A DNA stretch of 64,000 nt from Planctomycetota bacterium (lineage in GTDB: Bacteria > Planctomycetota > MHYJ01 > JACPRB01). The translations under genes were made by a program, and so were the position numbers. Below are positions 6,726 to 35,850 of this stretch, in pieces. The notes below the pieces were generated by a model. That model had not been told where the DNA came from, did no database searches, and saw only the letters and a program-made list of their open reading frames with translations. Numbering within the stretch: position 1 is the stretch's first letter; each line of letters starts with the position of its first letter. The stretch lies in contig JACPRC010000202.1 of the NCBI GenBank assembly GCA_016190175.1, positions 11,750-75,749 on the forward strand, in the 5' to 3' direction.

Positions 6726-9676
6726 ATGGACACGCCCGAGGACTCCGACCTCCTCTTCGGTCGGCTCGTCGTCGAGCAGAAGCTCGTCCGGCCGGAACAC
6801 GTCCGGGAGTGCCTGGGCGTGCAGGCCGCGCTCGCCGCGCAGGGCGCCTCCCCCCTCCCGCGGTTGGGCGAGCTGCTCGTCCAGCGGGGCTACCTCACGC
6901 CCGCCCAGTTCGGGCAGACGATGGGCGCTTCCGGAGCCGCCCCCTCCTCCTCCCCGCCTTCGGACACCCCCGAGGGCGAGCGCTTCGGCAAGTACGTCAA
7001 GACGAGGAGGCTCGGCGAAGGCGGGATGGGCGAGGTATGGAAAGCGTGGGACGGCGGCCTTCGCCGTTGGGTCGCCCTCAAGCTCCTCAAGAACGACGAC
7101 GCCAGCGACATCGCCCGCTTCAAACGGGAGGCCCAGACCGCCGGCGCCCTCAACCACCCGAACATCGCGGCGGTCTACGAAGTCGGCGAGGTCGCCGGCA
7201 AGCACTTCATCGCGATGCAGTTCGTCGAGGGGCAAACTCTCTGCGACTACCCGCGCCGCGACCGGCGGCGGCTCGTCGGGTTCATCCGCGACGCGGCCCT
7301 GGCGGTCCACGCGGCGCACCGGCAGGGAATCCTCCACCGGGACCTCAAGCCGGCCAACCTGATGGTGGGCGAGCCGGGCCGCCGGGTCTACGTGATGGAC
7401 TTCGGGCTCGCCAAATCCATGGACCTCCACAGCCCTCTCTCCGTCTCCGGAGCCGTCGTCGGCACGCCCGACTACATGAGCCCCGAGCAGGCGCGCGGGC
7501 TGGTCCACCGGCTCGATGCGCGCTGCGACGTCTACTCGCTCGGCGCGACCCTGTACGAGCTCCCGGCGAACCGCAAGCCGTTCGACGAGTCCGACGTCTT
7601 CGAGCTTCTTCGGAAGGTGGTCGACGTGGACCCCGAGCCGGTGCGGCGGGTCGAGCCGAAGATCGATCGCGATCTCGAGACGGTCGTGATGAAGTGCATG
7701 GAGAAGGACCCCGCGCGGCGATACGCGACGGCGCTGGAGCTGGCGAAGGACCTGACGCGGTACATCGACGGCCGCCCCATCCTTGCCCATCCGCCGTCGG
7801 TGACCTACCGGGTTTCGAAGTTCCTCGCGCGAAGGAAGGGGATCGTGGCGGCGGGCGCCGTGGCGTGCGCGGGGCTCCTCTTTGCCGCAGGCTATTGGCT
7901 GGCCCTCCGGCGCCAGGCGCAGGGCTGGGCGCGTGAGGGGGAGGCGAAGGCGCGGGCCGGAGAGTATGAGGAGGCGAAGCGCCTCTTCGACCGGGCGAGC
8001 GCGCGCATCGCGGTGAACGAGGACCTCTACCGGCAATGCGAGGCAAAGCTCTCGGAGCGCCGCGCCCAGGCGGAGGCGAAGAGACGCGAGGACGCGATCC
8101 TCGGGCCCCTCCGCGCGCGTCTGGCGCAGCTCCCCGAGAGTCCGGACGGATGGAGTCGCGGGCTCCGACTGCTGGAGCAGGCCCTGAGGGAGTTCGACGG
8201 CTCCAGCGAAACCTGGATGCTCAAGGGCACGCTTCACCAGAGGCTCTTCGAGTGGGACGACGCCTTGGAATCGTACCGGCGGGCCCTGGCGCTGAATCCG
8301 CGTCTCGGTGCGGCGCATTACCGGAGAGGGATGATCCTGCTCGAGGCGAAGGAGCGCCGGGATGAGGCCCTCGTGGAATTCGAGCGGGCGCAGGAAGTGG
8401 AGCCCGATAACGAGTACGCGATGGCCGGGCGCGCGCGCGTCGCGAATCTCAGGGGCGATCCTGCGGGGGCACTGAAGCTGTGCGACGAGGCGGTGCGGGG
8501 GGGGGACGGGCCGCCGATCTCTACTTCATTCGGGGGTGGACGTACGGGGACCCGGCCTGCCGGTTCTTCGATCCGGACCGCGCGATCGCCTGTTACACGA
8601 AGGTGCTCGATCTCGCGCCGCACTTTTGGGCGGCCCGGTACAATCGCGGCAAGGTCCGTCACAGAAAGGCGGAACGTCTCGTCGCCGCGGGACGGACCCG
8701 GGAGGCGGCCGCCGAGTGGGACGCCGCGCTGTCGGATTACGCGGAGATCCTGAAGTCGCTTCCGCGCAATGCCCAGGTCATCGCCGCCGCAGGAGAGGCG
8801 CGACTCGCCAGAGGAGATCCGAAGGGCGCCATCGACGCCTTCACGGCCGCCATCACGGTGGGCCCCGCTCCGGCCCTCCTCTACGTCTTTCGCGGCAACG
8901 CCCAGTACGCCGCGGGCGACTATGATGCGGCCCTGGCGGACTACGGGAAAGCGGTCCAGATCGACCCGGCCTGCACCGAAGCCCTCGTGGGCCGCGGGAA
9001 CGCCCGCTACATGAAACGCGACTACGACGGCGCCGTCGCCGACTACACGAAGGCGATCGCGCTCGCCCCACGCTACGCGAGGGCCTACGCGGGCCGGGCA
9101 CTCGCCTTCAACCGGAAGCGGGACTTCGACGCGGCCCACGCCGACTTCACCCGCGCGATCGAGATCGAGCCGCGCCACCCGCGCGCGCACTTCAACCGCG
9201 GCGTCGTGAGCGCCAACAGGGGCGACCTCGCCGGCGCCATCGAGGACTACACCAGGGCGATCGAGATCGAGCCTCGCGACGCCGATGCCTACATCAATCG
9301 CGCCCAGGCGCGCAAGACGCGGGGCGATATTCCGCGCGCGATCGACGACTACACCGGGACGATCATGATCCGCCCGCGCTTCGCCGAGGCGTACAACAAC
9401 CGGGCCGAGGCGCGCCTGACCGCGGGCGACCTGCGCGGATCGCTCCGGGATTGCGTGGAAGCGATCGGGATCAACCCCCGAATGCCGGAGGCGCATGCGC
9501 TGCGGGGCCTCGTTCGCGAAGCCCTGGCCCGCCGGGAATCGTCCTGCAGACGCGAGCACCTGGTGAACGCGGCGGCCGATCTCGATACGGCCCTCCGGCT
9601 CGGGTCCCCGCGCTGGCACCTTCGCGTCCTGGCGGAGTCCGTGCTTCGGCGCGTGCGCGAGGAATCGCGGAAATGA
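6726..9676 (+). CDS. Ser/Thr protein kinase with N-terminal T2SSE_N-like helical repeats and C-terminal TPR array; frame interrupted by a -1 frameshift at a G9 homopolymer (about 8497-8505)
   Basis: Start MDTPEDSDLL. Kinase motifs GEGGMGEVWKA...VALK, HRDLKPANLMV, DFGLAK, TPDYMSPE. The kinase frame ends in Arg-rich junk after ...CDEAVRGG. With one fewer G it fuses to ...RAADLYFIRGWTYGDPAC and about 10 TPR repeats (ORF 8480..9676). Confidence 0.7.
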
Positions 9677-9686
9677 ACCTGCGGCG

Positions 9687-11126
9687 CTACGCTCCCTCCG
9701 GCCGCGCCACCCGGACGAGTTCGTCCGCAAACTCCTCGGCGGTCGCGTGCCGCTTCCGCGGGTCCTTCTCGAGTGCGCGCAGCACCAGGCGGTCGAACTC
9801 CGCCGGCAGCCCCGGCTGCCGCGAAGAGGGTCTCGGCGCCGGCGCGTTCACGATCTTCTGGTAGACCTCCATCGCCGTGGAGCCCGTGAACGGCACCTCT
9901 CCCGTCGCGACCTCGAACGCCATCACGCCCAGCGCGTAGATGTCGGAGCGCGGGCCGACCGTGGACGTGTTGCCCTCGACCTGTTCCGGGGACATGTAGA
10001 ACGGAGTGCCCAGAAAGGACCCCGTGCGCGTCAGCATGGTCGCGCCGCCCATCGTCTTCGCGAGTCCGAAGTCGAGGACGAATGCCCGCCCCGTGCGGTC
10101 GATCATGACGTTCCCCGGCTTCACGTCGCGGTGGACGATCGAGGCCTGGTGCGCGAAGTGGAGGGCGCGGGCCACCTGGCCCAGGATCCGCGCACCCTCG
10201 CGGAGACCGATCCGGTTCTGCCCGAGGAGCGCGTCCAGGCGCTCCCCCTCGATCCAGTCCATCGCGATGTAATGAAGTCCGCGCTCCACGCCGACGTCGT
10301 GGACGGCGACGATGTTCCCGTGCCGCAGCGAGGCGGCCGTCCGCGCCTCGCGGTAGAACCGCTTCACGCCGGTCTCGTCGGCCCCTTCCCCGCGGAGGAC
10401 CTTCACCGCCACGATCCGCCGGAGATCGCGATGGCGCGCCTTGAACACGACGCCCATCCCGCCGCGGCCGATCTCCTCGAGGATCTCGTACCGCCCGAGA
10501 ACCTCGCCCGGCTCGACCTGCGGAGCGGGGCCCGCCCCGAACGGCGTGACCGCCGGCTGCCCCTCCGCGCGCACGGTCGCCTCGATCTGCGTCGTGGTCA
10601 CGCCGAGCGGGCCGCCGCATACGGAACAACGGGGATCCTGGGGAGTCGCGCCCTCGTAACGCGTGCCGCATTTCTCGCACCGGAGGAGGGATCGTTCCTG
10701 CAGCTTCAGGATCTCGAGGAACCGCTCCGTCGACAGGTACCTCCGGCGCACGAGGATCTGTCCGATGGCGATCTTCGCCCCGCGCGCGGACGCCTCCTGC
10801 AGCTCGGCGATGCACTCGTCCAATTGGGCGGCGGTGATGTACCCGCGCGCGACCGCGAGCTGGCCGAAGAGATCGATCTTGCGCGCCGTCGTCACCCGGC
10901 CCGCCGGCCGCGACGGCGGCGGCGTCCATCCCCCCAATTCGAGGTACCGCTGCTTCTGCACCTCGATCACGCGGCTCACCTGCTCGAAGGTCATCGCCCC
11001 GCGCTCAAGGAACTGCTGCCCGAGCGGCTTGGACGATCCGGACCGCGCGCAGCCATCGATGTCCGCGGCCGTCACGAAGCCCAGCTCGACGGCGATCTCC
11101 GCGAACTGACGTTCTCTCGCGTCCAC
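9687..11126 (-). CDS. Ser/Thr protein kinase with N-terminal T2SSE_N-like repeats and a zinc ribbon
   Basis: GTG start (V42 of ORF 9687..11249) with aggacg SD. N-terminus has GFVTAADIDGC / GYITAAQLDEC helical repeats and a CEKC...CSVC zinc ribbon. Kinase motifs GRGGMGVVFKARH...VAVK, HRDVKPGNVMI, DFGLAK, TPFYMSPE. Convergent with the upstream kinase (10-bp gap). Confidence 0.7.
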   Translation of the reverse strand: MDARERQFAEIAVELGFVTAADIDGCARSGSSKPLGQQFLERGAMTFEQVSRVIEVQKQRYLELGGWTPPPSRPAGRVTTARKIDLFGQLAVARGYITAAQLDECIAELQEASARGAKIAIGQILVRRRYLSTERFLEILKLQERSLLRCEKCGTRYEGATPQDPRCSVCGGPLGVTTTQIEATVRAEGQPAVTPFGAGPAPQVEPGEVLGRYEILEEIGRGGMGVVFKARHRDLRRIVAVKVLRGEGADETGVKRFYREARTAASLRHGNIVAVHDVGVERGLHYIAMDWIEGERLDALLGQNRIGLREGARILGQVARALHFAHQASIVHRDVKPGNVMIDRTGRAFVLDFGLAKTMGGATMLTRTGSFLGTPFYMSPEQVEGNTSTVGPRSDIYALGVMAFEVATGEVPFTGSTAMEVYQKIVNAPAPRPSSRQPGLPAEFDRLVLRALEKDPRKRHATAEEFADELVRVARPEGA

Positions 11127-11230
11127 GTTGCGTCCTCGACCCGCGCATCCCGCCCTTCCTATTATAGCACGGGCCGCCGCGGCCGCATGGCTCCCGCCCC
11201 GTGGTTTCGGTCTCCCCCTCCCCCGTCCGC

Positions 11231-11263
11231 ACCAAAAGTTGACTGTCAACTTTTGGTGTGCTC
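11231..11263. promoter_or_regulatory. Near-perfect 33-bp AT-rich palindrome (candidate operator) in the divergent kinase / oxidoreductase intergenic region
   Basis: gcaccaaaagttgac-t-gtcaacttttggtgtgc. Flanked by CT-rich tracts (ctccccctctcc x2) and a TACAAT -10-like hexamer about 20 bp upstream of the korA-like ATG. Confidence 0.5.
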
Positions 11264-11320
11264 CCCCTCTCCTTGTCTCCCCCTCTCCCTTTCGGCTACA
11301 ATTCCCCCGTGCCCCTCTTC

Positions 11321-12406
11321 ATGGACGGCTGCGAGGCCGTCTCGCTCGGCGCCATCCACGCGGGCTGCACGTTCTTCGCGGGCTATCCCATCACCCCCGC
11401 CAGCAGCATCCTCCGCCGCATGATGGAGATGCTCCCCGCCGCGGGCGGCGTCGCCGTCCAGGGCGAAGACGAGATCGCCTCCATCGGCTTCTGCATCGGG
11501 GCCGCGATGACCGGCGCGAAGGCGATGACCGCGACGAGCGGGCCCGGCATGAGCCTCTACAGCGAGAACATCGGCCTCGCGATCATGGGCGAGGTGCCTC
11601 TCGTCATCGTGAACGTGCAGCGCATGGGCCCCGCGACGGGGGGCGCGACCACGACCGCCGAGGGCGACGTCCAGTTCTGCCGCTGGGTCACTTCGGGCGG
11701 CTACCCGCTCGTGGTCTATGCGGCGACGAACGTCGCGGACGCCTACCGCCTCACGATCGAAGCGTTCAACACCGCGGAGCGGCTGCGTACGCCCGTGATC
11801 CTCCTCAGTTCCAAGGACCTGGCGATGACGTGCGAGACCGCGGACACAGCCGAGTTCGTGCGGCCGGCCCGCGTCACGCGCACGAGCGGCGACGGGGTAC
11901 CGTATGCCTTCCGCGAGTCCACGGACGTCCCGGGGTTCCTCGCCGTCGGGGGCGACCGCCTCACGCGCTTCACCGGCTCGATCCACGACGGGCGCGGAGT
12001 GATCACGTCGGATCGGAAGAAGATCGATCGCAAGCTGACGCACCTCCGCGACAAGATCGAGTCGCGCGCGGACGAGCTCGCGATCGTCCGCGAGGATCTC
12101 CAGGAGGGCGCCGAAACGGTCGTGATCGCCTACGGAGCGGCCGCGCGGGCGGCGCGCGAGGCGGTCCGGGACGCGCGTCGCGATGGCAAGCGCGTGTCGC
12201 TCCTCGTCCTCTACACGCTCTGGCCCACGCCGGTCGCCGCGATCCGGCGCGCCCTCGGCGGCGCGAAGCGGGTCGTCGTCCCCGAACTCAACACGGGCCA
12301 GTACCTCTGCGAGATCGAACGCTTCGCGGCGGGCCGGGAACTCGTCCCGGTGCAGCGGATCGACGGCGGCCTCCTCACGCCCGCCGCGCTGGAGGCCGCT
12401 CTATGA
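11321..12406 (+). CDS. 2-oxoacid:ferredoxin oxidoreductase, alpha subunit
   Basis: Start MDGCEAVSLGAIHAGCTFFAGYPITPAS (M22 of the ORF). Conserved OFOR alpha N-terminal and TPP-proximal motifs. Stop overlaps the next start (ATGA). Confidence 0.7.
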   Translation: MDGCEAVSLGAIHAGCTFFAGYPITPASSILRRMMEMLPAAGGVAVQGEDEIASIGFCIGAAMTGAKAMTATSGPGMSLYSENIGLAIMGEVPLVIVNVQRMGPATGGATTTAEGDVQFCRWVTSGGYPLVVYAATNVADAYRLTIEAFNTAERLRTPVILLSSKDLAMTCETADTAEFVRPARVTRTSGDGVPYAFRESTDVPGFLAVGGDRLTRFTGSIHDGRGVITSDRKKIDRKLTHLRDKIESRADELAIVREDLQEGAETVVIAYGAAARAAREAVRDARRDGKRVSLLVLYTLWPTPVAAIRRALGGAKRVVVPELNTGQYLCEIERFAAGRELVPVQRIDGGLLTPAALEAAL

Positions 12407-13689
12407 ACCTGATCGACCCCGAAGAACTCCCCTACCCTTTCTGCCCCGGCTGCTCCCACGAGCTGATCTTCAAGTCCCTGGCGGCCGCGTTCGAGAAGAG
12501 CGGCCTCGACGCGCGGCGCGTCGTCGTCGTCAGCGACATCGGATGCCACGGCATTGCGGACCGGATGCTCCGGACGCACACGTTTCACGGTCTCCACGGG
12601 CGGTCGCTCACATACGCCGCCGGCATCAAGCTCGCGAACCCGTCGCTCAAGGTGGTCGTCCTCATCGGCGACGGCGGGTGCGGCATCGGCGGTGCGCACC
12701 TCGTGAACGCGGCGCGGCGCAACGCCGGGATCTGCGCCGTGGTCTTCAACAACTTCAACTTCGGGATGACGGGCGGGCAGCACTCGGTCACGACGCCCTG
12801 CGGCGGGCGCACCGCGACGACGCCGAAGGGGAACGCCGAGCGCGGGCTCGACCTGTGCCGCCTGGCCGACGCCTGCGGCGCGAACTTCGTGGCCCGCACG
12901 ACCGCCTTCGACCCCGCGCTCGTGGACGTCCTTGCCGACGGGATCGCCCACGACGGATTCGCGTTCCTCGACATCTGGGGGCTCTGCACGGCCTACTACA
13001 TGAAACGGAACGACCTCCGGAAGGCGGAGCTCGTCGACACGGCGAAGAACATGCCCGGATACGGCGTCCTGCGCCGCGAGTCGCAGCCCGAATGGGCCGC
13101 GTCGCAACCGAAAGGATCGGCGCCGGAGCCGCGACTCGACGCGAACGAGATCCCCGTGCTCTTCCGGGCGGAGCTGAAGGAACCGCTGCGGGTCGTCCTG
13201 GCGGGCAGCGCCGGGATGAAGGTGCGGACGGCGGCCTCCCTCCTCGCGAGCGCCGCGATCCTTTCCGGCCTGCGCGCCGCGCAGAAGGACACGTTCCCGG
13301 TCACCGTGACCAAGGGATTCTCCCTCTCCGAACTGATCGTCTCGCCCGAGCCGATCGAAGACCTCGAGATCGTCCTGCCGGACTGCCTCGTGATCTCTTC
13401 CGAGGACGGGCTCGACAAGACGAAAGCCCTCGTCCCGCTCGCGCGCCGGGTCGTCGCGAAGCGCGGGCTCGACGTCACACGCGATGATGCGACGCTCGTA
13501 GACCTGCCGGGCGTGCGCCCGGCCGAGCTGACGCTTGCGATGACCGCCCCGCTCCTGCGCGACGCGATCCCCGCGGAGGCGATGCGCGAGTCGGTGCTGC
13601 GGTTCGGCCACGTGGAAGAACGGGAGCGCCTTCTCGCGGCGGTCGGGAACCCGGCCGCCGCGGAGGGCGTCACAAGGAGGACAACATGA
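12403..13689 (+). CDS. 2-oxoacid:ferredoxin oxidoreductase beta (TPP-binding) subunit with a C-terminal gamma-like domain fused
   Basis: MNLIDPEELPYPFCPGCSHE...GDGGCGIGGAHLVNAARRNAGICAVVFNNFNFGMTGGQ (TPP-binding beta). C-terminal about 180 aa (LAGSAGMKVRTAASLLASAAILSGL...) resembles the OFOR gamma domain. ATGA overlap with the downstream gene. Confidence 0.65.
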   Translation: MNLIDPEELPYPFCPGCSHELIFKSLAAAFEKSGLDARRVVVVSDIGCHGIADRMLRTHTFHGLHGRSLTYAAGIKLANPSLKVVVLIGDGGCGIGGAHLVNAARRNAGICAVVFNNFNFGMTGGQHSVTTPCGGRTATTPKGNAERGLDLCRLADACGANFVARTTAFDPALVDVLADGIAHDGFAFLDIWGLCTAYYMKRNDLRKAELVDTAKNMPGYGVLRRESQPEWAASQPKGSAPEPRLDANEIPVLFRAELKEPLRVVLAGSAGMKVRTAASLLASAAILSGLRAAQKDTFPVTVTKGFSLSELIVSPEPIEDLEIVLPDCLVISSEDGLDKTKALVPLARRVVAKRGLDVTRDDATLVDLPGVRPAELTLAMTAPLLRDAIPAEAMRESVLRFGHVEERERLLAAVGNPAAAEGVTRRTT

Positions 13690-14603
13690 AATGGACGCTC
13701 GCCGCGGCCGCGACGCTCGCCGCCGCGGTGCTCTTCGTGCTCGGCGTGCGCGCGTGGCGGGCCCGCCGCCGTCCCGGATGGCGCGGCGAATTCGTCCTCG
13801 CCCTCTCGGCGGCGCTCGCGATGTTCGCCGGCGCCTCCGCAGGCGAACCGGCGAGACAGGAGGATCCCGCGGCGAAGGACCTCGAGACGCGCGTCAGGGA
13901 CGTGGAACGCGACTCCCGCTGGAAGCAGATGCGCAAGATCTTCCGCAAGCTGGCCGCGCAACTCGAGTCGAAGGATCCCGTCGCCGGCGATCCGACCGCG
14001 GAGACGAAGGAGCTCTCCGGGAAGATCACTCCCCTCGATCTGCGGGAGCCGCAGAAGGCGGACGCCCCGCTCCTCTCGCGCGAGGAGGCGCTCGGCGAGT
14101 GCCTCAAGTTCCTGGGCAGCGTCGCGTTCCACGTCCACCGCACGAAGGGCGAGGGCCGGCGCTGGACCTGCTACGACATGGCGATGCCCCGGTCGAGCGA
14201 GCACCTCCCGGCGCAGCAGGCGCTCCTCAAGAAGCAGTACGAGGAGGGCAAGGTCTCGAAGGAGGTCTACGAGCGCCTCACGAAGGTGTTCGGCGAAGTG
14301 ACGGGGATGCAATCGCTCCTGCCGTTCCTCAACGCCCGCAACACGGCGCTCGTCTTCCGCCTCATCCGCGACATGGCGGGGGCGCGGGCGATCGAGATCC
14401 CGAAGATCTCCCCCGAGGTCGAAAAGAAGATCGGCGATCTCATCGAGCAGCTCGGCGCCGACGAGATCGAGAGACGCGACGACGCGCACAAGGCGCTGAT
14501 CGAGATCGGCGAGGGAGCCATCCCGCAGCTCAAGAAGGCGCTGGAACACAAGAGCGCCGAGGTGCGGGCCCGCGCGAAGATGATCCTGGAAGAACTGGAG
14601 TGA
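13686..14603 (+). CDS. Membrane-anchored hypothetical protein with conserved Cys pair and C-terminal HEAT-like repeat (paralog 1 of a tandem pair)
   Basis: N-terminal transmembrane segment then RRRPGWRGEF. Conserved ALGECLKFLGSVAFHVHRTKGEGRRWTCYDM. C-terminal IGEGAIPQLKKALEHKSAEVRARAK (HEAT/PBS-like). About 65% identical to the next gene, with near-identical DNA stretches. Confidence 0.55.
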   Translation: MKWTLAAAATLAAAVLFVLGVRAWRARRRPGWRGEFVLALSAALAMFAGASAGEPARQEDPAAKDLETRVRDVERDSRWKQMRKIFRKLAAQLESKDPVAGDPTAETKELSGKITPLDLREPQKADAPLLSREEALGECLKFLGSVAFHVHRTKGEGRRWTCYDMAMPRSSEHLPAQQALLKKQYEEGKVSKEVYERLTKVFGEVTGMQSLLPFLNARNTALVFRLIRDMAGARAIEIPKISPEVEKKIGDLIEQLGADEIERRDDAHKALIEIGEGAIPQLKKALEHKSAEVRARAKMILEELE

Positions 14604-14607
14604 GACC

Positions 14608-15540
14608 ATGAAATCCGTGACGCTGACGATCGTCGTCGGCGCGGCCTTCGCCGCGGCGGCGCTGCTCCTCCTCTTCGGCATCCGCACGATGCGGCCGCGG
14701 CGCCGTCCCGGATGGCGCGGCGAGTTCCTCCTCGCGCCGACGGCGGCGCTCGGCTTCCTCTCGGGCGCCGGCGCGCCCGCGCGGATCGCGGCGCAGGAGG
14801 ACCCGGCGGAGAAGGACTTCGAGGCGCGCGTGAAGGAGGTCGAGAAGGACGCTCGATGGAAGAAGATGCGGAAGTTCTTCCGGGAGCTGGCCCGCGACTT
14901 CGCCGCAAAGGGGACGATCCAGCACGACCCGCAGGTCGCCGCCGAGGAGGCGACGTCCGGCATCAAGGTCGAAGCGATCAAGGAACAGCAGAAGGAGGAC
15001 GCGAAGCTCCTCGACAAGGAAGCCGCGCTCGGCGAGTGCGCGAAGTTCATCGGGGCCGCGGCCTATCACCTCTGGCGCACGAAGGGCGCCGGACGCGAGT
15101 GGACCTGCTACAAGATGGCGCTGCCCGAAAGGAACCCGCACGTCCCCGAGCAGCGGGCGCTCCTGAAGAAGCAGTACGAAGAGGGGAAGATCTCGCAGGA
15201 GGTCTACGAGCGCCTCACGCGGGTGCTGGACGAGATGGACCAGTTGCAGCGCGTGATGGCGATGCTGAACGCCCGCAACACCGCGCTCGTCTTCCGCCTG
15301 ATCCGCGACATGGCCGGCTCGCGCGCGGTCGACATCCCGAGAATCTCCCCCGAGGTCGAGAAGAAGATCGGCGAACTCATCGAGCAGCTCGGGGCGGAGG
15401 AGATCGAGAAGCGGGACGAGGCGCAGCACGCGATCCTCCAGATCGGCGAAGGCGCGATCCCGCAGCTCAAGAAGGCGCTGGAGCACAAGAGCGCCGAGGT
15501 GCGCGCGCGCGCGAAGCTGATCCTCGACGAGCTGGAGTAG
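14608..15540 (+). CDS. Membrane-anchored hypothetical protein, paralog 2 of the tandem pair
   Basis: Same architecture: RRRPGWRGEF, ALGECAKFIGAAAYHLWRTKGAGREWTCYKM, and a C-terminal IGEGAIPQLKKALEHKSAEVRARAKLILDELE identical to paralog 1. Starts 5 nt after the paralog 1 stop. Confidence 0.55.
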   Translation: MKSVTLTIVVGAAFAAAALLLLFGIRTMRPRRRPGWRGEFLLAPTAALGFLSGAGAPARIAAQEDPAEKDFEARVKEVEKDARWKKMRKFFRELARDFAAKGTIQHDPQVAAEEATSGIKVEAIKEQQKEDAKLLDKEAALGECAKFIGAAAYHLWRTKGAGREWTCYKMALPERNPHVPEQRALLKKQYEEGKISQEVYERLTRVLDEMDQLQRVMAMLNARNTALVFRLIRDMAGSRAVDIPRISPEVEKKIGELIEQLGAEEIEKRDEAQHAILQIGEGAIPQLKKALEHKSAEVRARAKLILDELE

Positions 15541-19309: not shown

Positions 19310-20281
19310 TCACCGCTGCACCATCCCCGTCGGGTTGATCGTGATCTCCTTCTCCTCCGCCGGGGACTTGATCTTGATCCGCAGCTGGTTCGAGTGCTTC
19401 CGCGGGTCCAGCCGCCCCTCGCCGTCGAAGTGGATCACGAATTCCGTCTGCTTCGGCGCGAGGTATCCCTGGGGCAGGTCGAACTTCGCCTCGCTCGGCA
19501 GCAGGTACCGCTCGCGCGCGAAGATGAGGCTCACGCGGAACTCGTCGAGGATCCCCTGGCAGCCGCCCTTCGACGCGCCGAGCACGAGCGCCTGCCCCTT
19601 CGTCCACTTCATCGTGACCGCTCCCGTCGCCAGGAGCGCGTCGTTGACGACGAGCTGCGCCTCGCGGCCGTTGAAGACGAGGTGGATCCGGTACCAGCGG
19701 TCCGAGCCGCGGAAGGTCACGCTCCCCGACGAGAGCGTGGCCGTGCCGATCCGCGCGACGAGCTGGCCGTTCGCCTCGATCGACATCTCGAGCTGCGGCC
19801 CGATCGCGCACAGCATCTGCCGCCGCGGCGCGTCGACACGATAGAACCAGAACTCGATCGCGACGCCCTGGTCCTCGGCGTACACCGGAAACTCCCCGCA
19901 GTCCACGGTCGTCGAGCCCGTCATCTGGAGCGCCGAGCCGACGCGGCCCGGCACGAGCACGCCGTTCGTGACGCGGCCGTTCTTCCCGAACGCCCCCGTC
20001 GTGACCGTGTCCTCGAAGTGCCACTCCCCCGCGGTCTCCTTGGTCATCGCGTAGACGGCGTTGCCGGCGACGTCGAGGACGACCCATGCGGGGCTGCGCG
20101 TGGCGCGCGCCTCGTCGCGCGCGGCGCGCAGCACGGCGACGAGATGTCCCGCGGCCGCGCGCACGCCGAGGTCGCGGTTCGCGTTGCGGTACAGGGCGAC
20201 GGAAAGCCCGAGGAGCAGGGAGATGATCACGATGACGACGACGACCTCGATGAGGGTGACGCCGGCCCGGTGGTTGGTCAT
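19310..20281 (-). CDS. Prepilin-type N-terminal cleavage/methylation domain protein (pseudopilin/type IV pilin-like)
   Basis: Start MTNHRAG|VTLIEVVVVIVIISLLLG: a short leader ending in G followed by the TLIE hydrophobic helix. The ORF-track extension upstream begins at a TTG inside the hairpin repeat. Confidence 0.65.
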   Translation of the reverse strand: MTNHRAGVTLIEVVVVIVIISLLLGLSVALYRNANRDLGVRAAAGHLVAVLRAARDEARATRSPAWVVLDVAGNAVYAMTKETAGEWHFEDTVTTGAFGKNGRVTNGVLVPGRVGSALQMTGSTTVDCGEFPVYAEDQGVAIEFWFYRVDAPRRQMLCAIGPQLEMSIEANGQLVARIGTATLSSGSVTFRGSDRWYRIHLVFNGREAQLVVNDALLATGAVTMKWTKGQALVLGASKGGCQGILDEFRVSLIFARERYLLPSEAKFDLPQGYLAPKQTEFVIHFDGEGRLDPRKHSNQLRIKIKSPAEEKEITINPTGMVQR

Positions 20282-20349
20282 TGGTGGTTGGTGGTTGGTG
20301 AAGAGGGCACGCACCCCGCACCAACCACTAACCACCAACCACCAACCAC
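20271..20349. repeat. Hairpin element E1 built from tandem heptamers (GGTTGGT)n / (ACCAACC)n
   Basis: ggtggttggtcattggtggttggtggttggtg-aagagggcacgcaccccg-caccaaccactaaccaccaaccaccaaccac. Lies between the pseudopilin-2 stop and the pseudopilin-1 start codon, and the ATG is inside one arm. Confidence 0.6.
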
Positions 20350-21056
20350 TAGAATTGCCGGAGATCGTCCTCGGTTCCGAGGATCCCGTCCGGTCCCGGG
20401 GAAACGAGCTGGTACTTGTCGGGCATCGCCCACGAGCTTCCCGCCCCCTTGAGCGGCTTGAAGGACTGCTCCTGGCCGCCCGCCGCGCCGAGGTAGGTCG
20501 TCAGGGGCGCGGGAGCCCGGGCGTAGTCGTTGTGGTGGAGATAGACCAGCGGGTTCCCGAAGAAGTCCGTGTACTCCAGGAGCGCGTACGCCCCCGACTC
20601 CGCGAGATAGGACTCCGTCGGGTTCTTGGGGAGATCGTCGCCGTCCGCGTTCGCGTACATCTCCTGCGTAGGCGGCTGGTACAGGATGCCGCCCTTCTGC
20701 TTGCTCGAGAGACTCGCGACGAGGGACTCGACTCCGTTGTTCGTGTTGTTCGGGACCTTCACCTTGTAGTCGGCGAGGGTGGACGGCGGGTAGTCGCGCC
20801 AGCGCGTGTGGTAGTTGTCGAGCGCGCCCTGCATCGTGGAGAGCATCGCCTGCGTGTTCGAGATCTTCGAGGTCTTGATCGCGTAGGTGACGCCCACCAG
20901 GGCGAGCGAGGCGAGGATGCCGATGATGACGATGACGACGAGGATCTCGAGCAGGGTGAAGCCGGCCCGGGGATACGGGGAGATGGGGGGATGAGGGGAT
21001 GGGGGGAGCGTCCGCCACTCCCCCCATCTCCCCATCTCCCGATCTCCCGATCTCAT
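20349..21056 (-). CDS. Prepilin-type N-terminal cleavage/methylation domain protein (GspG/PulG-like pseudopilin)
   Basis: ...PRAG|FTLLEILVVIVIIGILASLALVG: a canonical GspG-type N-terminus. Start is M1 (21056, overlapping the upstream stop) or M8 (21035). The leader coding region is made of GGGGATG-type heptamers. Confidence 0.65.
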   Translation of the reverse strand: MRSGDREMGRWGEWRTLPPSPHPPISPYPRAGFTLLEILVVIVIIGILASLALVGVTYAIKTSKISNTQAMLSTMQGALDNYHTRWRDYPPSTLADYKVKVPNNTNNGVESLVASLSSKQKGGILYQPPTQEMYANADGDDLPKNPTESYLAESGAYALLEYTDFFGNPLVYLHHNDYARAPAPLTTYLGAAGGQEQSFKPLKGAGSSWAMPDKYQLVSPGPDGILGTEDDLRQF

Positions 21057-25421: not shown

Positions 25422-27254
25422 TCATTCGTATCGCGCCTGGCAGATCACCGCGATCTCGAAGCGCCGCCATCCCGGACGGTCGGCGTCCGTCAGTCCGGAC
25501 GTCCGCGCGAGCTGCCCTCTCTGCTCCTTCGTCAGCCGCCGCTTGATCTCGTCGAGGATCCGGTTCGCCTTCCCCGGCGATTCGGCGCTCACCTCCCCCA
25601 CCACCAGGACGACGCGCGCGTCGCCCTCCCATTCGAGCAGGTCGGCGCAGTCCCCTTTCGGGAAGATGCGCGGTTCCGCCTGCGGGGGAAAGTCCATGCG
25701 GACCCGGAACGCATCTTCCGTGCGGTCCTCGATCTCGCCGATCACCAGCCCGGCCTCCGCGTGGCGGAAGAGGCAGCGCCGCCCGCCCTTCCCCTCGCGC
25801 GTGCGGTCCCCGGAGGGATCGACGATCTTCAGCTCGCGCAGCATGATCCCCTCCTCCTTGAGCGCGAACTGCCGCACCTCCGAATGGACGTCCAGAAGCG
25901 CGCGGGAGGCGAGGGTGGCCGTCGCGATCCGGTCGAGCCTGGCCGCGACCTCGCGCTGGTCCGCCTCGATCCGGTCGAGCTTCGCGATCCGATCGAGGTT
26001 CGCGGAGGACTGCTTTTCGAACCCCTCCCGGCGCGACGTCTGGGACGCGCGGCGCACGGCGGCGAAGCCGGTGATGACGAGGAGCGCGACGAGGAGGGCG
26101 GCCGCTCCCGCGGCGACGTAGGACCACGCCCGGAAGAAGTCGCGCCTCTTCTTGACCGCGTCCGGCAGGATCGAGAGCATGGCCTTGTCCGCCGGCAGGA
26201 GGGAGAGCTGCGCGAGACCCAGCGGCACGGCGAACTCCGTGGGAAGCGAGCGGAAGTCCTCCCCGCCCGCGGCCTCCACGCCCGAGGCGTCGACGCCGGC
26301 GATGAACGGGTCGAAGAGCTCGACGGGCACCTTGAGCGGGCTCTGCTGAAGGGAGCTCTGGAGATACTCGGGCAGCCCGCGCAACCGCGCGCCGCCGCCC
26401 GAAAGCAGGATGCGATCGACGGACAGCTCGCGGTCGCCGAGCTCCACGCGCGCGTGGTTGACGCAGGACTGGATGAAGCCGGAGAGCTGGCCCGCGGCCG
26501 TGCGGATCGCGGGCCGGATCTCCTCCTCCTTCGGATCCGCGTTGTCGGACGCGGGCAGGATGCTGCCGTAGCGGATCTTCAGCCACTCGGCCTCGTCGGG
26601 CCCCACGCCCGCGGCGGCCGCGATGTTCTGGTCGAAGATGCGGGCCCCCGTGGAGACGTTGCGCGCGTAGATGAGCTTCCCGCCCCGGACCAAGGCGACG
26701 TCCATGTTGTCCGCGCCCAGGTCCAGGACCATGTGCGTCCCGCCCGCATCGCCGTAGGCGGTCCGGAAGGCGGCGCACAGCGCGAAGGCGTTCGGCACGG
26801 CGTCCCGGACGTCCACCCCCGCCCGCCGCGCCACCTCGAGCCGCTCGTCCACGTAGGGCTTCTTGCCCACGCCCACCATGGCGAGATACTGTTTGAAGTA
26901 CGCGTCGGGCTCCCGCAGGGTGCAGAAGTCCGCATAAAGCTGCTCGTCCCCTTCGCGGCGCTGGTCCAATTCGTAGCCCATCATCGCCCGGTAGTTCGCC
27001 GGCTTCATGGCGGGCTGCTGCACGACCTGGAGGTTGATGTCGCGGCCGGAGAGTCCGACCACGCCGACGCGCCGGCCGCCCCCGTCGCCCAGCGCCTCGT
27101 GGAGGATCTTCATCAGCAGAGGCTTGCGCTCCTCGGGCTTGCCGACCCTCGGAATGCGGCGGCGGGCGACGCCGGTGACGACGAATCCACGGAGGCCGCG
27201 CTGGAGCGCGACCACCTTCACCGCGCTGTTGCCCAGATCGATCCCGAGTCCCAT
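25422..27254 (-). CDS. Type IV pilus assembly PilM-like actin-fold ATPase fused to a PilN-like transmembrane coiled-coil segment
   Basis: MGLGIDLGNSAVKVVAL (PilM N-terminal motif). Actin-like fold through about 350 aa, then a transmembrane helix (WSYVAAGAAALLVALLVITGF) and coiled coil. Confidence 0.6.
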   Translation of the reverse strand: MGLGIDLGNSAVKVVALQRGLRGFVVTGVARRRIPRVGKPEERKPLLMKILHEALGDGGGRRVGVVGLSGRDINLQVVQQPAMKPANYRAMMGYELDQRREGDEQLYADFCTLREPDAYFKQYLAMVGVGKKPYVDERLEVARRAGVDVRDAVPNAFALCAAFRTAYGDAGGTHMVLDLGADNMDVALVRGGKLIYARNVSTGARIFDQNIAAAAGVGPDEAEWLKIRYGSILPASDNADPKEEEIRPAIRTAAGQLSGFIQSCVNHARVELGDRELSVDRILLSGGGARLRGLPEYLQSSLQQSPLKVPVELFDPFIAGVDASGVEAAGGEDFRSLPTEFAVPLGLAQLSLLPADKAMLSILPDAVKKRRDFFRAWSYVAAGAAALLVALLVITGFAAVRRASQTSRREGFEKQSSANLDRIAKLDRIEADQREVAARLDRIATATLASRALLDVHSEVRQFALKEEGIMLRELKIVDPSGDRTREGKGGRRCLFRHAEAGLVIGEIEDRTEDAFRVRMDFPPQAEPRIFPKGDCADLLEWEGDARVVLVVGEVSAESPGKANRILDEIKRRLTKEQRGQLARTSGLTDADRPGWRRFEIAVICQARYE

Positions 27255-27257: not shown

Positions 27258-29390
27258 CTATCCACCCGAACGGATCTGATCCAGCATCCTCCGCGCCTCC
27301 TCGCCCGTCTCCGTCGAGCCGTACGAAGCGACGATCCCGGCGAGGATCGCCTCCGCCAGCGCCTTCCGGCCCGCCTCCAGGCACTGCCGCGCCCGGTCCA
27401 GCAGTTTGCGCGGCCGGTCCGACCCACCGGGCACGGCCGTCACGTCCGCAATACGCTTGCGGAGCGTGCGGGCCTTCGAAAGGTACGGCTCCCCGGACCA
27501 GAGCCGCTCGTACCGGTCCACCTCGACACCCGCGGCCTCCAGTTCCGCCTGGAGGGCGACCAGTTCGGCGGCCAGGCCCCTCGACTCGGCGATGCGCCAG
27601 TCCTCCGACTCCCGCTGCTCCAGTTCCGAGATGAGGGCCGCGATCTCGCGCGCGGCCGACTCGTCGAGCGTCGAGTCGCCCTGCGCGGCCCGCAGAACCT
27701 GCAGCGCCCGGAACGGCTGGTCTTTCGTCAGATCCCGCGCCTCGGCCCTGGGGTCCTTCCTCGACGCGCGATCCGCCAGGCCGCGGAGGCGGAAGGCCGC
27801 CAGCACTTTCCCCTCGGTATCGGTGACGGCGAACGGCTGCACGAGACGGTTCCCTTCCCGCACCGCCGGCCGCAGGCGCCGGTCGACGTAGACGATCCGA
27901 TAGTCTTCGCCCGCCGTGAACTCCAATTGCGCAACCGGTTCCTCCGGCAAGCGCAGACGGTCCGCCCGCGGGACGACCGCCCAGAGATCGACCCGACCCA
28001 CTTGCGCCAGGTCGGACGCCTTGAATTCGTAGGCGATCCCGAGATCGTCCTTCGCGCTCCAGAAGATCGACATCTCGTACGGGACCGCGGCGCCGCTCAC
28101 CGGATGGGCCGCGGCACCCTGGACGACGATGCGTCCCTCCTCCCTCCGGACGGACGCGGGCGACAGGAGCTGGGAGGTCGCGCCCTCGAGATCGTTCTCG
28201 AGACGGAAGTGGAGGTCGGACATGACCGCGTGAGCCCCCCGGAGGATCGTGACCGCGCCGCCCCGGGCGACGAGGATGCGGAACGGCCCCGCCTCCATCT
28301 CCTCGCGCGCCTTCCCCGCGGGCTTCCCGACGATGCGCACGTCGTCGAAGTAGATGAGACCCGCGCGTCCCGCCGTCGCGAGCGCGAGTCTCAGTTCCCT
28401 CACGCCGGGCGGCACGTCGAACGTGTCGCGGATCGCGATCCAGTCGGCCCCCTTGGAGACCGGCGCGGAGAACTCCTCGAAGAGGACCGCCCCGTCGCGG
28501 AGCCACGCGACCTTCACCGCGGCGGAGCCGGCGAAGTCGCCCCACTTGGCCCATGCCGACACTTCGAAGGACTTGTGCGACCCGACGGCGATCCTCTCGG
28601 AGTACTCTACTTCCGACTGCGTCTCCGCGGGCGCGGGCCCCTTCCGCAGTTCCAGGGCCCTCTTCCCCGTGCGCGCCGCCGCCTCCGTGACGGACACGGA
28701 AGAGGAGCCCGGAGGATGAAGGGCCCAGTTCGTCGGCTTTCCGGGCGCGGCCCACTCGAAGCCTCCTTCGTCGCGCAGGAGGTTCTCTTTGTCTTCTCCG
28801 CCCCTGGTGCCGCGGCCGGGCAGAACGAGCGCGAGGACGGTCAGGCCGACGAGAGCGACGGCGACGGAGACGGCGATCAGCAGGCGCCGCAGGTTCAGGC
28901 CCGACGAGGTCCAGGCCCCGATGTCCTTCACGAGAGCGGCCGCCGTCCTGCGTGCCTCCGTCTTTTTCGGGGCGGGGGGGACCGCCGGTTGCGCGGAGCC
29001 CGACGCGGGTTTCGACCCCGAGGCTGGGGCTTCCGCCGGAGGGGCCGTCATTCGCTCCGTCTTGACTTTCGTGTCGCCGGCCGACTTCCTCGCGGCGCCG
29101 CTGTCCCGCTTCACCTCGAACCAGATGTAGGTCTGGCCGATGTGGATGCGGTCGCCCGGTTCGAGCCTGCGCTCCCAGACGCGCCCGCCGTTGAGGAGCG
29201 TACCGTTCATGCTGCCCCTGTCCACGAGCGTCACGACGCCGTTCGCCAGCACGACCTCGCAATGCTCGCGGGAGATGTTGGCGTCGCCGACGGGGACCTG
29301 GCACTTGGAGGAACGGCCGATGACGTTGGGACCTTCGCGGAGCTCGACAGTCCACTCCCGGTCCAGGTGCTGGATGATCAGCTTCGGCAT
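27258..29390 (-). CDS. FHA-domain membrane protein
   Basis: N-terminal FHA: VIGRSSKCQVPVGDANISREHCEV...DRGSMNGTLLNG...GDRIHIG. Central transmembrane helix (LLIAVSVAVALVGLTVLALVL) and a large extracytoplasmic domain. Stop is 1 nt from the PilM/N start. Confidence 0.7.
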   Translation of the reverse strand: MPKLIIQHLDREWTVELREGPNVIGRSSKCQVPVGDANISREHCEVVLANGVVTLVDRGSMNGTLLNGGRVWERRLEPGDRIHIGQTYIWFEVKRDSGAARKSAGDTKVKTERMTAPPAEAPASGSKPASGSAQPAVPPAPKKTEARRTAAALVKDIGAWTSSGLNLRRLLIAVSVAVALVGLTVLALVLPGRGTRGGEDKENLLRDEGGFEWAAPGKPTNWALHPPGSSSVSVTEAAARTGKRALELRKGPAPAETQSEVEYSERIAVGSHKSFEVSAWAKWGDFAGSAAVKVAWLRDGAVLFEEFSAPVSKGADWIAIRDTFDVPPGVRELRLALATAGRAGLIYFDDVRIVGKPAGKAREEMEAGPFRILVARGGAVTILRGAHAVMSDLHFRLENDLEGATSQLLSPASVRREEGRIVVQGAAAHPVSGAAVPYEMSIFWSAKDDLGIAYEFKASDLAQVGRVDLWAVVPRADRLRLPEEPVAQLEFTAGEDYRIVYVDRRLRPAVREGNRLVQPFAVTDTEGKVLAAFRLRGLADRASRKDPRAEARDLTKDQPFRALQVLRAAQGDSTLDESAAREIAALISELEQRESEDWRIAESRGLAAELVALQAELEAAGVEVDRYERLWSGEPYLSKARTLRKRIADVTAVPGGSDRPRKLLDRARQCLEAGRKALAEAILAGIVASYGSTETGEEARRMLDQIRSGG

Positions 29391-29560: not shown

Positions 29561-29605
29561 TAATCCTTCCGGCTCGGAGCCTCCGCGGCCAGGCGACGAA
29601 ACCGC

Positions 29606-29927: not shown

Positions 29928-31466
<1,539 letters not shown>

Positions 31467-31562
31467 GTCCCGCCAGACTCTGCACGGCGAAGTCCGCGCG
31501 GTGCCCCATGGCCGCCCGGTCTGTCTCGGAGCGTTTCCGGCGGACCGGAGGAGTCTGACGGG

Positions 31563-32363: not shown

Positions 32364-32432
32364 TCGAATCCGGATCGCCCGAAACTCATCACGGGGTATA
32401 CTCCTGAGGAACTTCTACCGGGGGACCCGACC

Positions 32433-32645
32433 ATGAAGACCGCATTCCTGCTGGCCACCCTGATCCTGCCGGCACAGGACTCCGATCTGGAGAGGGTCCG
32501 CAAGAAGATCTCGGAGCAGGTGGAGAGGAGCCTGGATTCGTTGCGCAGCTTCTCCAGGGACGCCCAGCGCTGGTGGAAGGACGCCGTCGATTCGATCCTC
32601 CAGAAGTTCGGCGGAAAGAAGAAACCGTACGGGGACGGCGGCTGA
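32433..32645 (+). CDS. Small hypothetical secreted protein
   Basis: MKTAFLLATLILPAQD signal peptide; 70 aa. Ends at a TGA that is in frame with the next ORF. Confidence 0.35.
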   Translation: MKTAFLLATLILPAQDSDLERVRKKISEQVERSLDSLRSFSRDAQRWWKDAVDSILQKFGGKKKPYGDGG

Positions 32646-32672
32646 AAGCCCCCGGCGGACAAACCCCGGCGC

Positions 32673-33185
32673 GTGGCGCCGGACGAGAAACCCGTGGAGC
32701 CGCCGAAGAGGATCGAGGACTTCCGCTACGACGCGTGGGATTCGTGGAACTCGTTCGCTCCGGGAGCCTCCGTCGAGTTCGAGATGGAGGCCGGCGGTTC
32801 GAAGATGCGGCAGGTGAAGACGCTCGACTCGAAGAGGCCGGACGCGATCACGGTCAAGTCCGTGATGATCCTCAAGATCGGCGACGACGAGAACAGGACC
32901 GAATCGGACGAGACGTTCCTGAAGTCGCGGGGCGGCCCGGCGCAGTGTCCGTCCTGCAAGAAGCCCGTGTCCTCGCACGATCCGGGGACGTTCAGCCGCG
33001 AGCGCCTCAAGATCGGCGACCGCGACCTGGACTGCGTCGTGTGGAAATCGCCCGCGCGCGATTGCTCCGGAAAAGCGACGACGCCGGTGCGGATGTGGTA
33101 CTGCAAGGACGTCCCCGGCGGGAACGTGAAGACGGAGAGCGAGCACTGGAAGATGACCGCGACGCGCTTCGATCCGAAGAAATAA
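32673..33185 (+). CDS. Hypothetical protein (Cys-containing, no signal peptide)
   Basis: GTG start. CPSCKK...CVVWKSPARDC. Same frame as the upstream small ORF, separated by a single TGA. Confidence 0.4.
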   Translation: MAPDEKPVEPPKRIEDFRYDAWDSWNSFAPGASVEFEMEAGGSKMRQVKTLDSKRPDAITVKSVMILKIGDDENRTESDETFLKSRGGPAQCPSCKKPVSSHDPGTFSRERLKIGDRDLDCVVWKSPARDCSGKATTPVRMWYCKDVPGGNVKTESEHWKMTATRFDPKK

Positions 33186-33224
33186 GTTCGCCGAACCGCT
33201 CCTTGGTTATTTCCCCCACCCCGG

Positions 33225-33252
33225 TTGCCTTTCCCGTTTTTCGGTGTATAAT
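33225..33252 (+). promoter_or_regulatory. Sigma-70-like promoter candidate for the TPR kinase gene
   Basis: TTGCCT-16 nt-TATAAT (ggTTGCCTttcccgtttttcggtgTATAATtcat), about 40 nt upstream of ATG 33289. Confidence 0.4.
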
Positions 33253-33288
33253 TCATACAATAATAGAGGAAGGGACCGGCTGGGGAGC

Positions 33289-35850
<2,562 letters not shown>

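Follow-up and report, generated by a model that had tools for sequence, protein, structure and literature searches.

MshEN_N-like repeats at the N-termini of planctomycetal Hanks-type kinases form a candidate cyclic-dinucleotide-responsive cassette

Do the repeats that open several Ser/Thr kinases of a planctomycetal locus tie these enzymes to a neighbouring pilus-like operon, or do they have another role in signalling? The question was raised by a 64,000-nucleotide stretch of DNA, hereafter the window, from a Planctomycetota bacterium (assembly GCA_016190175.1, contig JACPRC010000202.1, positions 11,750 to 75,749, forward strand). An initial annotation had described three kinases and a kinase-less paralog that all begin with a helical repeat resembling the N-termini of GspE/MshE secretion ATPases, and had proposed that the kinases control pseudopilus assembly and dock onto secretion ATPases through this repeat. 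The window is about 69% G+C, and its genes were called by third-position GC. The four repeat-bearing proteins are named K1–K4, of which K1–K3 are Hanks-type kinases and K4 is the kinase-less relative. When a hidden Markov model (HMM) of the repeat unit was run against the six-frame translation of the window, matches were confined to these four open reading frames (ORFs).

The G(F/Y/W)(I/V/L)T core of the repeat corresponds to positions 10–13 of the MshEN motif, RLGxx(L/V/I)(L/V/I)xxG(L/V/I)(L/V/I)xxxxLxxxLxxQ (Wang et al. 2016, PMC5013675), which in its relaxed form reads [RKPN]hGxxhhxx[GAS]hhxxxxhxxxhxx[QNKRYWST] (PMC5013675). In MshE, PilB and PilF, paired 24-residue helix-turn-helix motifs make up MshEN_N, a four-helix bundle that binds one molecule of cyclic di-guanosine monophosphate (c-di-GMP) (PMC5013675); this known function had been overlooked in the initial annotation. 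The four proteins and their parts are as follows, with TM denoting a transmembrane helix and TPR the tetratricopeptide repeat.

6726..9676, plus strand: K1, with one MshEN_N-like unit, a Hanks kinase, one TM helix (residues 371–389) and a long periplasmic TPR array
6753..6932, plus strand: K1 MshEN_N-like unit, motif I LFGRLVVEQKLVRPEHVRECLGVQ, 12-residue spacer, motif II RLGELLVQRGYLTPAQFGQTMGAS
6993..7727, plus strand: K1 kinase domain, Pfam Pkinase, residues 90–334
9687..11126, minus strand: K2, a cytoplasmic 479-residue kinase with (MshEN_N)2, a zinc ribbon and Pkinase
10956..11108, minus strand: K2 unit 1, degenerate, motif I QFAEIAVELGFVTAADIDGCARSG, motif II PLGQQFLERGAMTFEQVSRVIEVQ
10698..10871, minus strand: K2 unit 2, near-canonical, motif I LFGQLAVARGYITAAQLDECIAEL(Q), motif II AIGQILVRRRYLSTERFLEILKLQ
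10617..10682, minus strand: K2 zinc ribbon, RCEKC...CSVC, with weak zinc-ribbon Pfam matches and beta strands at residues 147–175 in the AlphaFold2 (AF2) model
9735..10490, minus strand: K2 kinase domain, Pfam Pkinase, residues 213–464
33289..35850, plus strand: K3, 853 residues, with a degenerate N-terminal remnant, a Hanks kinase containing an insert of about 50 residues, a TM helix (residues 450–468) and TPR
33310..33459, plus strand: K3 degenerate repeat remnant, LYCRIAVEFGLLTEADVDDF...PHLYFLARRKLTQTDADRV
57623..58537, plus strand: K4, 304 residues, with (MshEN_N)2, a zinc ribbon and a non-catalytic kinase N-lobe; begins 9 nucleotides after a 2820-residue ORF
57641..57826, plus strand: K4 unit 1, degenerate, with the Gly of motif I replaced by Cys
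57863..58036, plus strand: K4 unit 2, the most canonical, motif I LLGQLLLEDKLITREALDQALEAQ, motif II RIGEILVEMKCVEASAVIAALRKQ
58055..58126, plus strand: K4 zinc ribbon, CPGC...CPKC, strands in the AF2 model
58247..58492, plus strand: K4 kinase N-lobe remnant, beta1–3, alphaC, beta4–5

K1 carries two motifs (one unit), K2 and K4 carry four each (two units), and K3 retains a degenerate remnant. Against the relaxed motif, those of K1 (9/11 and 11/11 for motifs I and II), K2 and K4 score 9–11 of 11 and those of K3 score below 9. Leave-one-out HMMs recovered K1 at E 1e-14, K2 at E 3e-29 and K4 at E 5e-22, with K3 at E 0.022 (10.6 bits). The K3 remnant also matched unit 1 of K2 by BLAST (E 2e-4, in a small search space), and it has Cys and His at the essential Gly positions. 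Thus the repeats, initially attributed to all four proteins, stood for K1, K2 and K4 and were reduced to a remnant in K3.

A profile built from the six window units matched PilF (6f8l, E 8.7e-11), MshE residues 9–61 (5htl, E 4.9e-5), PilB (5zfr) and the PilF c-di-GMP domain (8pe0) in the PDB, residues 9–61 of MshE being its 53-residue c-di-GMP-binding stretch. In single-sequence phmmer searches of the PDB, K4 residues 78–140 alone matched Thermus thermophilus PilF (6f8l, E 1.2e-4), PilB (5zfr and 5tsg) and the MshE N-domain (5htl), and the K2 N-terminus matched nothing relevant. Alignment by hhalign to the solved MshEN_N segments gave a probability of 97.8% and an E value of 8e-13, in register over 56 columns. 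Furthermore, the AF2 model of K2 residues 1–176 (mean predicted local distance difference test score, pLDDT, 78) comprised two four-helix units (84–95), a disordered linker and a beta-ribbon, and one unit could be superposed on MshE in its c-di-GMP-bound form (5htl_B) at 0.9 Å (59 columns; Foldseek probability 1.00). The fold match was judged by local superposition and Foldseek probability, the whole-chain E value being weak. The likeness to GspE/MshE N-termini was thereby borne out by profile, by hhalign and by fold.

The Pfam check that had been proposed for this likeness gave a different outcome: PF05157 matched none of K1–K4 at E<=1, nor did it appear in the Pfam results for 50 relatives. 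That the model can perform on such loci is shown by its match to a T2SSE-family ATPase in one of the related loci (L020); the miss is explained by the boundaries of the model and is no counter-evidence to homology. Sub-threshold Pfam matches were to DUF4388, FumaraseC_C and zinc-ribbon families instead. The DUF4388 profile aligned at its positions ~34–78 with the window proteins and with 38 of 50 family members. This Pfam family corresponds to the PATAN domain, whose alpha-clip insert is the same repeat that starts the ATPases of type II secretion systems and type IV pili (bioRxiv 10.1101/2021.06.11.447907), and because of this identity the DUF4388 matches do not point to a rival fold. Only the N-terminal MshEN_N subdomain is present in K1–K4, and the alpha/beta N1/MshEN_C subdomain is absent from all four. 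Judged by sequence and modelled fold, the window repeats are homologous to MshEN_N, strongly so for K1, K2 and K4 and marginally for K3.

The breadth of the family was assessed with an HMM of the two-unit-plus-ribbon module, searched exhaustively against representatives of clusters formed at 50% identity. Word-indexed homolog searches had returned just 4–5 relatives, and it was the exhaustive HMM search that revealed the family, with 7,674 cluster representatives matching at E<=1e-3, of which 160 reached E<=1e-30. Among 149 top representatives, 41 matched the kinase HMM, mostly directly after the module (about residues 200–470), and about 65 were shorter than 300 residues. Other fusions of the cassette were to FGE-sulfatase, amidase, HisKA/HATPase, TPR and HEAT domains, and stand-alone relatives of the K2 module of about 170 residues were also found (P0005–P0008). 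Across all four motifs of the 149 representatives, Gly occupied motif position 3 in 91–99% and Gln position 24 in 87–98%, with hydrophobic residues at positions 2, 17 and 21. These positions correspond to G11/G40, Q32/Q61, L10 and L54/L58 of MshE, where they are the ligand-contact residues; the G11I substitution abolishes c-di-GMP binding, and the non-binding XpsE has the same bundle without these Gly/Gln residues (PMC5013675). Since XpsE folds without them, the fold alone does not demand the conserved Gly and Gln. The composite of (MshEN_N)2 plus zinc ribbon is a widespread, self-contained signalling cassette that stands alone or is fused to kinases, histidine kinases and other outputs.

The likeliest reading of the modules, to which we assign a probability of about 0.5, is that they are c-di-GMP-responsive, or degenerate, sensors on kinases. 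The putative binders of c-di-GMP or a related dinucleotide would be unit 2 of K2 and of K4 and the single unit of K1. Binding would alter either kinase activity or the association of module proteins with a partner kinase, and its net effect would be to couple the level of a second messenger to Ser/Thr phosphorylation. In a stronger form, more speculative and rather unlikely, (MshEN_N)2-zinc-ribbon would be a genuine receptor for cyclic dinucleotides. It would gate Hanks kinases either in cis (K2, K1) or in trans, where N-lobe-only adaptors such as K4 dock on a partner membrane TPR kinase. If true, this would be the first direct relay from c-di-GMP to Ser/Thr phosphorylation, and Planctomycetota would gain a large class of c-di-GMP receptors that has so far been missing. 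In Isosphaera pallida, MshEN is the sole receptor type listed (Supplementary Table 5 of PMC5013675).

Pfam Pkinase matched K1 at E 1e-38, K2 at E 5e-51 and K3 at E 2.6e-45, and the catalytic motifs VA(L/V)K, HRDxKPxN, DFG and SPE are retained in all three translations. The Ser/Thr kinases placed at 6726, 9687 (minus) and 33289 in the initial annotation were thus confirmed, on sequence criteria, as Hanks-type enzymes with intact catalytic motifs. A single TM helix follows the kinase domain in K1 and in K3, both of which also have Pfam TPR matches (TPR_1 at E 4e-56 in K1); K2 and K4 have no TM helix. In K1 the kinase domain begins about 20 residues past the repeat unit. Orthologs of this unit open the second kinase in each of two metagenomic loci (L010 and L014, E ~1e-10), and the unit is the counterpart of unit 2 in the two-unit proteins. 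Translation of K1 starts at the ATG at 6726, the frame is lost in a run of nine G residues (8497–8505), and the TPR array resumes in the next frame up to 9676. Read through this frameshift, K1 has 982 residues, and both halves are colinear with single homologous proteins such as P0074; the frameshift reflects a sequencing error in the homopolymer, or else a gene inactivation that is recent or phase-variable. K2 lies convergent to K1 with 10 bp between the stop codons, and its choice of start codon was confirmed by its identity to the cluster representative P0020. In motif I of K2 unit 1 the essential Gly is replaced by Ala and the Gln by Gly. Unit 2 of K2 gave an HMM domain E value of 3e-19 and an hhalign probability of 98% to the solved MshEN_N segments, with one Gln displaced by one residue. 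Among the four window proteins, zinc ribbons occur only in the two-unit K2 (CEKC...CSVC) and K4 (CPGC...CPKC), in agreement with the two CxxC...CxxC proteins first noted.

K4 had been regarded as a decayed paralog. It is indeed kinase-less, and no kinase domain was found in it by Pfam; the protein is conserved rather than decaying, its orthologs being 54–57% identical with the same length and architecture. The ligand-contact positions of unit 1 hold Cys and Arg instead of Gly and Gln, and unit 2 scores 9/11 and 7/11 on the strict motif with all essential Gly and Gln residues present. All four Cys residues of the ribbon are invariant across 10 family members. By hhalign, the K4 family profile is colinear with K2 from residue 4 to residue 248, into kinase strands beta1–3, and kinase HMM positions 5–61 match K4 residues 209–267 (15.7 bits). 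K4 has lost the Gly-rich loop as well as the catalytic Lys (VALL for VAVK) and has no C-lobe. Moreover, residues 205–290 of the AF2 model show N-lobe topology at pLDDT 85–92, and the top 50 Foldseek matches in the PDB are all protein kinases. Distant N-lobe-only relatives were also found (P0139, P0071 and P0151). K4 is a conserved non-catalytic derivative; its interpretation as a pseudogene was ruled out by the same-length orthologs and the confidently folded N-lobe. An ORF 3' of K4 was considered as the missing kinase C-lobe and rejected, as matched by neither Pfam nor the kinase HMM. The ORF that ends 9 nucleotides before K4 (49151–57613, plus strand) encodes 2820 residues with matches solely to Ig_Rha78A_N and, weakly, a beta-propeller. 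On the 3' side (58587–62638) lie an unannotatable 410-residue ORF, a HEAT-repeat protein and a 443-residue ORF. This gene order recalls the MshEN-UNK-HEAT architecture of Myxococcus xanthus FrgA (PMC5013675), split into separate genes.

The surroundings of related module genes were compared in 16 metagenomic loci carrying such genes (149 neighbour proteins). The recurrent neighbour families were Pkinase (14 proteins), Response_reg (8) and TPR. FHA, PilM and N_methyl were absent among the families listed for these loci (25-family lists with lowest entries of 2 members). In L010 and L014 a two-unit kinase of the K2 type precedes a one-unit kinase of the K1 type, and kinase pairs also occur in L033 and L035. 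In L041 (446–3500) the gene convergent with a K4 ortholog encodes a K1-like kinase-TPR protein with 55% identity to the K1 C-lobe, and in L045 (155–1342) a K4-like gene lies 70 nucleotides upstream of a tandem kinase gene. Stand-alone two-unit modules are convergent with PAS-HisKA-HATPase kinases, a few nucleotides apart, at L038 7974–11123 and L043 709–3743, and the cassette may partner with kinases of both types. The recurring theme is a module protein with a signalling kinase as its neighbour, exemplified here by K2 and K1. The recurring K2-like/K1-like pairing suggests that a cytoplasmic two-unit protein and a membrane TPR kinase act together. In L020 (6638–8615) a stand-alone module divergently adjoins the T2SSE-family ATPase with its own PF05157 match, the sole secretion-ATPase neighbour among the 16 loci.

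The other system of the window, which the initial annotation had placed under the control of these kinases, is a six-gene operon headed by a forkhead-associated (FHA) membrane protein.

27258..29390, minus strand: FHA membrane protein, first gene of the operon, with FHA residues 23–85 (nucleotides 29136–29324), a TM helix (residues 165–183) and a large C-terminal region
25422..27254, minus strand: PilM-domain protein, PilM_2 E 1e-17 (residues 4–319), a TM helix (residues 375–393) and a periplasmic tail of about 215 residues
24108..24902, minus strand: PilO/GspM-like bitopic protein, weak T2SSM_b match (E 0.015), N-terminal TM helix, syntenic in L001, L002 and L004
21053..24013, minus strand: 986-residue protein with TM and TPR families, syntenic
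20349–21056, minus strand: GspG-like pseudopilin with prepilin N-methylation motif, syntenic
19310–20338, minus strand: GspH/LamG-like pseudopilin with prepilin N-methylation motif, Laminin_G_3 E 2e-8, syntenic

The FHA domain was matched by Pfam at E 1e-16 and aligned with Mycobacterium tuberculosis FhaA (3po8) at E 1.4e-11. The residues on which its reading of phosphothreonine (pThr) would depend, and whose absence had been named as a possible objection, are present: GR, SxxH and NG are kept as IGRSS, ISREH and SMNGT, against IGRGQ, VSRRH and STNGT of FhaA. On this alignment the domain looks competent to read pThr. The FHA stop codon lies 3 nucleotides from the ATG of the PilM-domain gene, so that the claimed coupling of FHA to PilM/N stood in its PilM part; no Pfam match to PilN was found in the 25422–27254 protein, and a PilM-PilN-like fusion is inferred with its PilN part taken from the TM helix and topology only. 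The two pseudopilins match N_methyl at E 2e-7 and 4.5e-6. The six genes and a divergent RNase Y-YmdB pair are conserved in three full-length Planctomycetota loci from metagenome-assembled genomes (L001, L002 and L004). PilM(N) is 42–64% identical in such loci, and the FHA gene is conserved in L001–L005. No extension ATPase (GspE/PilB), platform protein (GspF/PilC), secretin or prepilin peptidase was found in the window or within ±10 kb in the syntenic loci, and the window holds no secretion ATPase. The ±10 kb flanks of the operon in L001, L002 and L004 are likewise devoid of kinase domains and repeat units. As a gene set, the FHA-PilM(N)-PilO-like-TPR-pseudopilin operon stands apart from the kinases and is conserved in Planctomycetota.

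The interval between K2 and this operon encodes a 2-oxoacid:ferredoxin oxidoreductase, two paralogous membrane proteins, a radical SAM enzyme and a ferredoxin-like protein (Fer4), and that between the operon and K3, which lies 3.9 kb from the FHA gene, encodes RNase Y, YmdB and a small ORF. The region 11258–15540 was considered as an FHA/PilM module and rejected, encoding instead the oxidoreductase and the two membrane proteins. The latter are tandem paralogs (13686–14603 and 14608–15540, plus strand) with 192 identical residues in a 312-column alignment, each with an N-terminal TM helix, a HEAT-like C-terminal end and no Pfam match. Planctomycetota encode 20–140 Ser/Thr kinases per genome, and the kinase-TM-periplasmic-TPR arrangement is a common architecture (PMC11032199). 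Three kinases in 64 kb are only a mild excess, with two of them forming a linked pair, and because of these genomic kinase numbers proximity of kinases to the operon is weak evidence.

Elsewhere in the window, K3 is followed by a Thr/Ser/Gly-rich 452-residue protein (35947–37305) and then by a polysaccharide export pair (37209–40758, plus strand) consisting of a Wza-like (Poly_export/SLBB) and a Wzc-like (AAA_31) protein. A 1031-residue ORF without Pfam match (43004–46099) shows atypical codon-position GC (GC1 < GC2) and an ambiguous coding strand. A toxin-antitoxin/defence-type cluster (46216–49232) comprises a nucleotidyltransferase/HepT (MNT-HEPN) pair, an AbiEii-like gene and a Uma2 endonuclease, and a tRNA-Val(GAC) lies at 62759–62848 (plus strand).

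Several observations weigh against a c-di-GMP-responsive role of the modules. The window contains no GGDEF, EAL or HD-GYP gene, and an Rfam scan of it gave no c-di-GMP riboswitch and no RNA family at gathering score. GGDEF was not among the recurrent neighbour families of the 16 module loci, and PilZ was a neighbour just twice. At the level of the motif, position 1 of motif I is Leu in both units family-wide, outside [RKPN], where MshE has the guanine-stacking Arg9; the essential Gly is missing in K2 unit 1, K4 unit 1 and all of K3; and the K1 unit has Ser at the last Gln position, while in K2 a Gln is shifted by one residue. The spacers between motifs measure 3, 10, 12, 14 and 10 residues, compared with 5 in MshE, a length that is an MshE trait and not a family trait, since the spacers of PilF and PilB are also longer. 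In addition, the whole-chain Foldseek E value of the two-domain K2 model (0.23) was not significant. That value, the failure of PF05157 to match at E<=1 and the short, hydrophobic character of the motifs would also fit a chance similarity of amphipathic helical repeats, with the four proteins sharing nothing specific. However, the top PDB profile matches are MshEN-type ATPase N-termini, in register; the leave-one-out E values run from 1e-14 to 3e-29 for K1, K2 and K4, only four window ORFs match the unit HMM, and the superposition on ligand-bound MshE is at 0.9 Å. Chance is effectively refuted for K1, K2 and K4, possible for K3 only, and as an account of all four proteins hardly credible.

The departures from the canonical motif would fit modules that are nucleotide-blind interaction or dimerisation domains, alpha-clip bundles that tether kinases to each other or to partners such as alpha-clip proteins, PilZ-type adaptors or pilus-motor components. 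The N-terminus of Xanthomonas citri PilB binds a PilZ protein, and its structure (7lkm) is among the profile and Foldseek matches; alpha-clip PATAN domains bind PilB1 and PilC (bioRxiv 10.1101/2021.06.11.447907); ligand positions have degenerated in several window units, with Arg replaced by Leu at motif I position 1; and module genes repeatedly adjoin kinases, which fits a partnering role. We give this alternative a substantial minority chance. The Gly3/Gln24 conservation of 87–99% in all four motifs of 149 diverse representatives argues against it, these residues being missing in the non-binding XpsE and used by MshE for ligand contact, and interaction and ligand binding are not mutually exclusive. 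A third possibility, put forward in the initial annotation, is that the FHA protein recognises substrates phosphorylated by the kinases, which would in this way control the PilM/N pseudopilus, and that the kinases attach to a secretion ATPase through their GspE-N-like module. With its pThr-binding residues intact at the head of a pilus-like operon, the FHA protein probably receives signals from some Ser/Thr kinase; K3 is 3.9 kb away, the L020 module adjoins a T2SSE ATPase, and PATAN/alpha-clip domains bind PilB in cyanobacteria (bioRxiv 10.1101/2021.06.11.447907). However, the operon lacks a kinase or module within ±10 kb in L001, L002 and L004, and FHA, PilM and pseudopilin genes are not enriched around modules. 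The module is most degenerate in K3, the kinase nearest to the operon, unrelated genes lie between operon and kinases, and proximity means little among 20–140 kinases per genome (PMC11032199). Docking also finds no footing, as the window lacks a secretion ATPase and the proteins lack N1/MshEN_C, the part thought to engage membrane partners. A link between the pilus operon and K1–K3 is therefore unsupported, and we consider this model improbable. The reading of the modules as c-di-GMP-responsive or degenerate sensors is the one retained.

Comparison with known systems indicated a known domain in a new architecture: the MshEN_N cassette and ribbon N-terminal to a Hanks kinase. With MshEN_N of MshE, PilB and PilF (5HTL, 8PE0, 6F8L; PMC5013675) the window proteins share the 24-residue tandem motifs hLGxxhhxxGhhxxxxLxxxLxxQ, the four-helix bundle and the Gly/Gln positions; they differ from these ATPases in lacking MshEN_C/N1 and the ATPase, in spacers of 3–14 rather than 5 residues, in Leu for Arg, and in the fused ribbon and Hanks kinase. 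Duplication of the unit without N1 is shared with Cyanothece cce_1044, (MshEN_N)2, and the 'MshEN_N only' architectures (Supplementary Table 4 of PMC5013675), to which the window family adds an invariant CxxC...CxxC ribbon and, in 41 of the 149 top representatives, fusion to Pkinase; the N-terminal (MshEN_N)2-ribbon-Pkinase arrangement is not in the 'MshEN_N only' list of that paper. PKN11 of Stigmatella aurantiaca (Pkinase-MshEN-UNK-REC, Myxococcales) likewise combines a Hanks kinase with an MshEN-type domain, but has the reverse domain order, full MshEN and a REC output. It is the only kinase fusion listed in PMC5013675, whose authors inferred from it a link between c-di-GMP and protein phosphorylation, and no experimental work on module-bearing kinases was found in the literature searched. 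The helix-hairpin repeat is also shared with the PATAN/DUF4388 alpha-clip insert of PatA-type regulators, although the window proteins lack the PATAN core, and PATAN acts on PilB/PilC, no such partner being evident here.

For the operon, the nearest parallel is the control of type VI secretion by PpkA and Fha1, in which the kinase is encoded in the same cluster as the FHA protein. Like such FHA-gated envelope machines, the window operon encodes an FHA protein, presumably reading a pThr mark, together with an envelope-spanning machine; in contrast to PpkA-Fha1, operons of the window type are without a kinase in the three full-length related loci. In a genome rich in kinases, finding some of them near an FHA-pilus operon is no evidence of coupling.

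These findings bear on a general gap, in that c-di-GMP networks contain many synthesising and degrading enzymes and few identified receptors. The Pfam gathering thresholds miss the module, which makes it invisible to routine annotation; published surveys of planctomycetal kinases do not mention it in the text searched, and cassette kinases may be among those classed as "Pkinase only" (PMC11032199). The N-lobe-only K4 and the recurring module/kinase pairs suggest trans-regulation of kinases by pseudokinase fragments. If the cassette binds nucleotide, receptors would be added by the thousand (7,674 clusters at 50% identity), and, with Ser/Thr kinases making up about a quarter of its nearest relatives (41 of the top 149), it would connect two signalling systems so far linked by domain-architecture inference alone.

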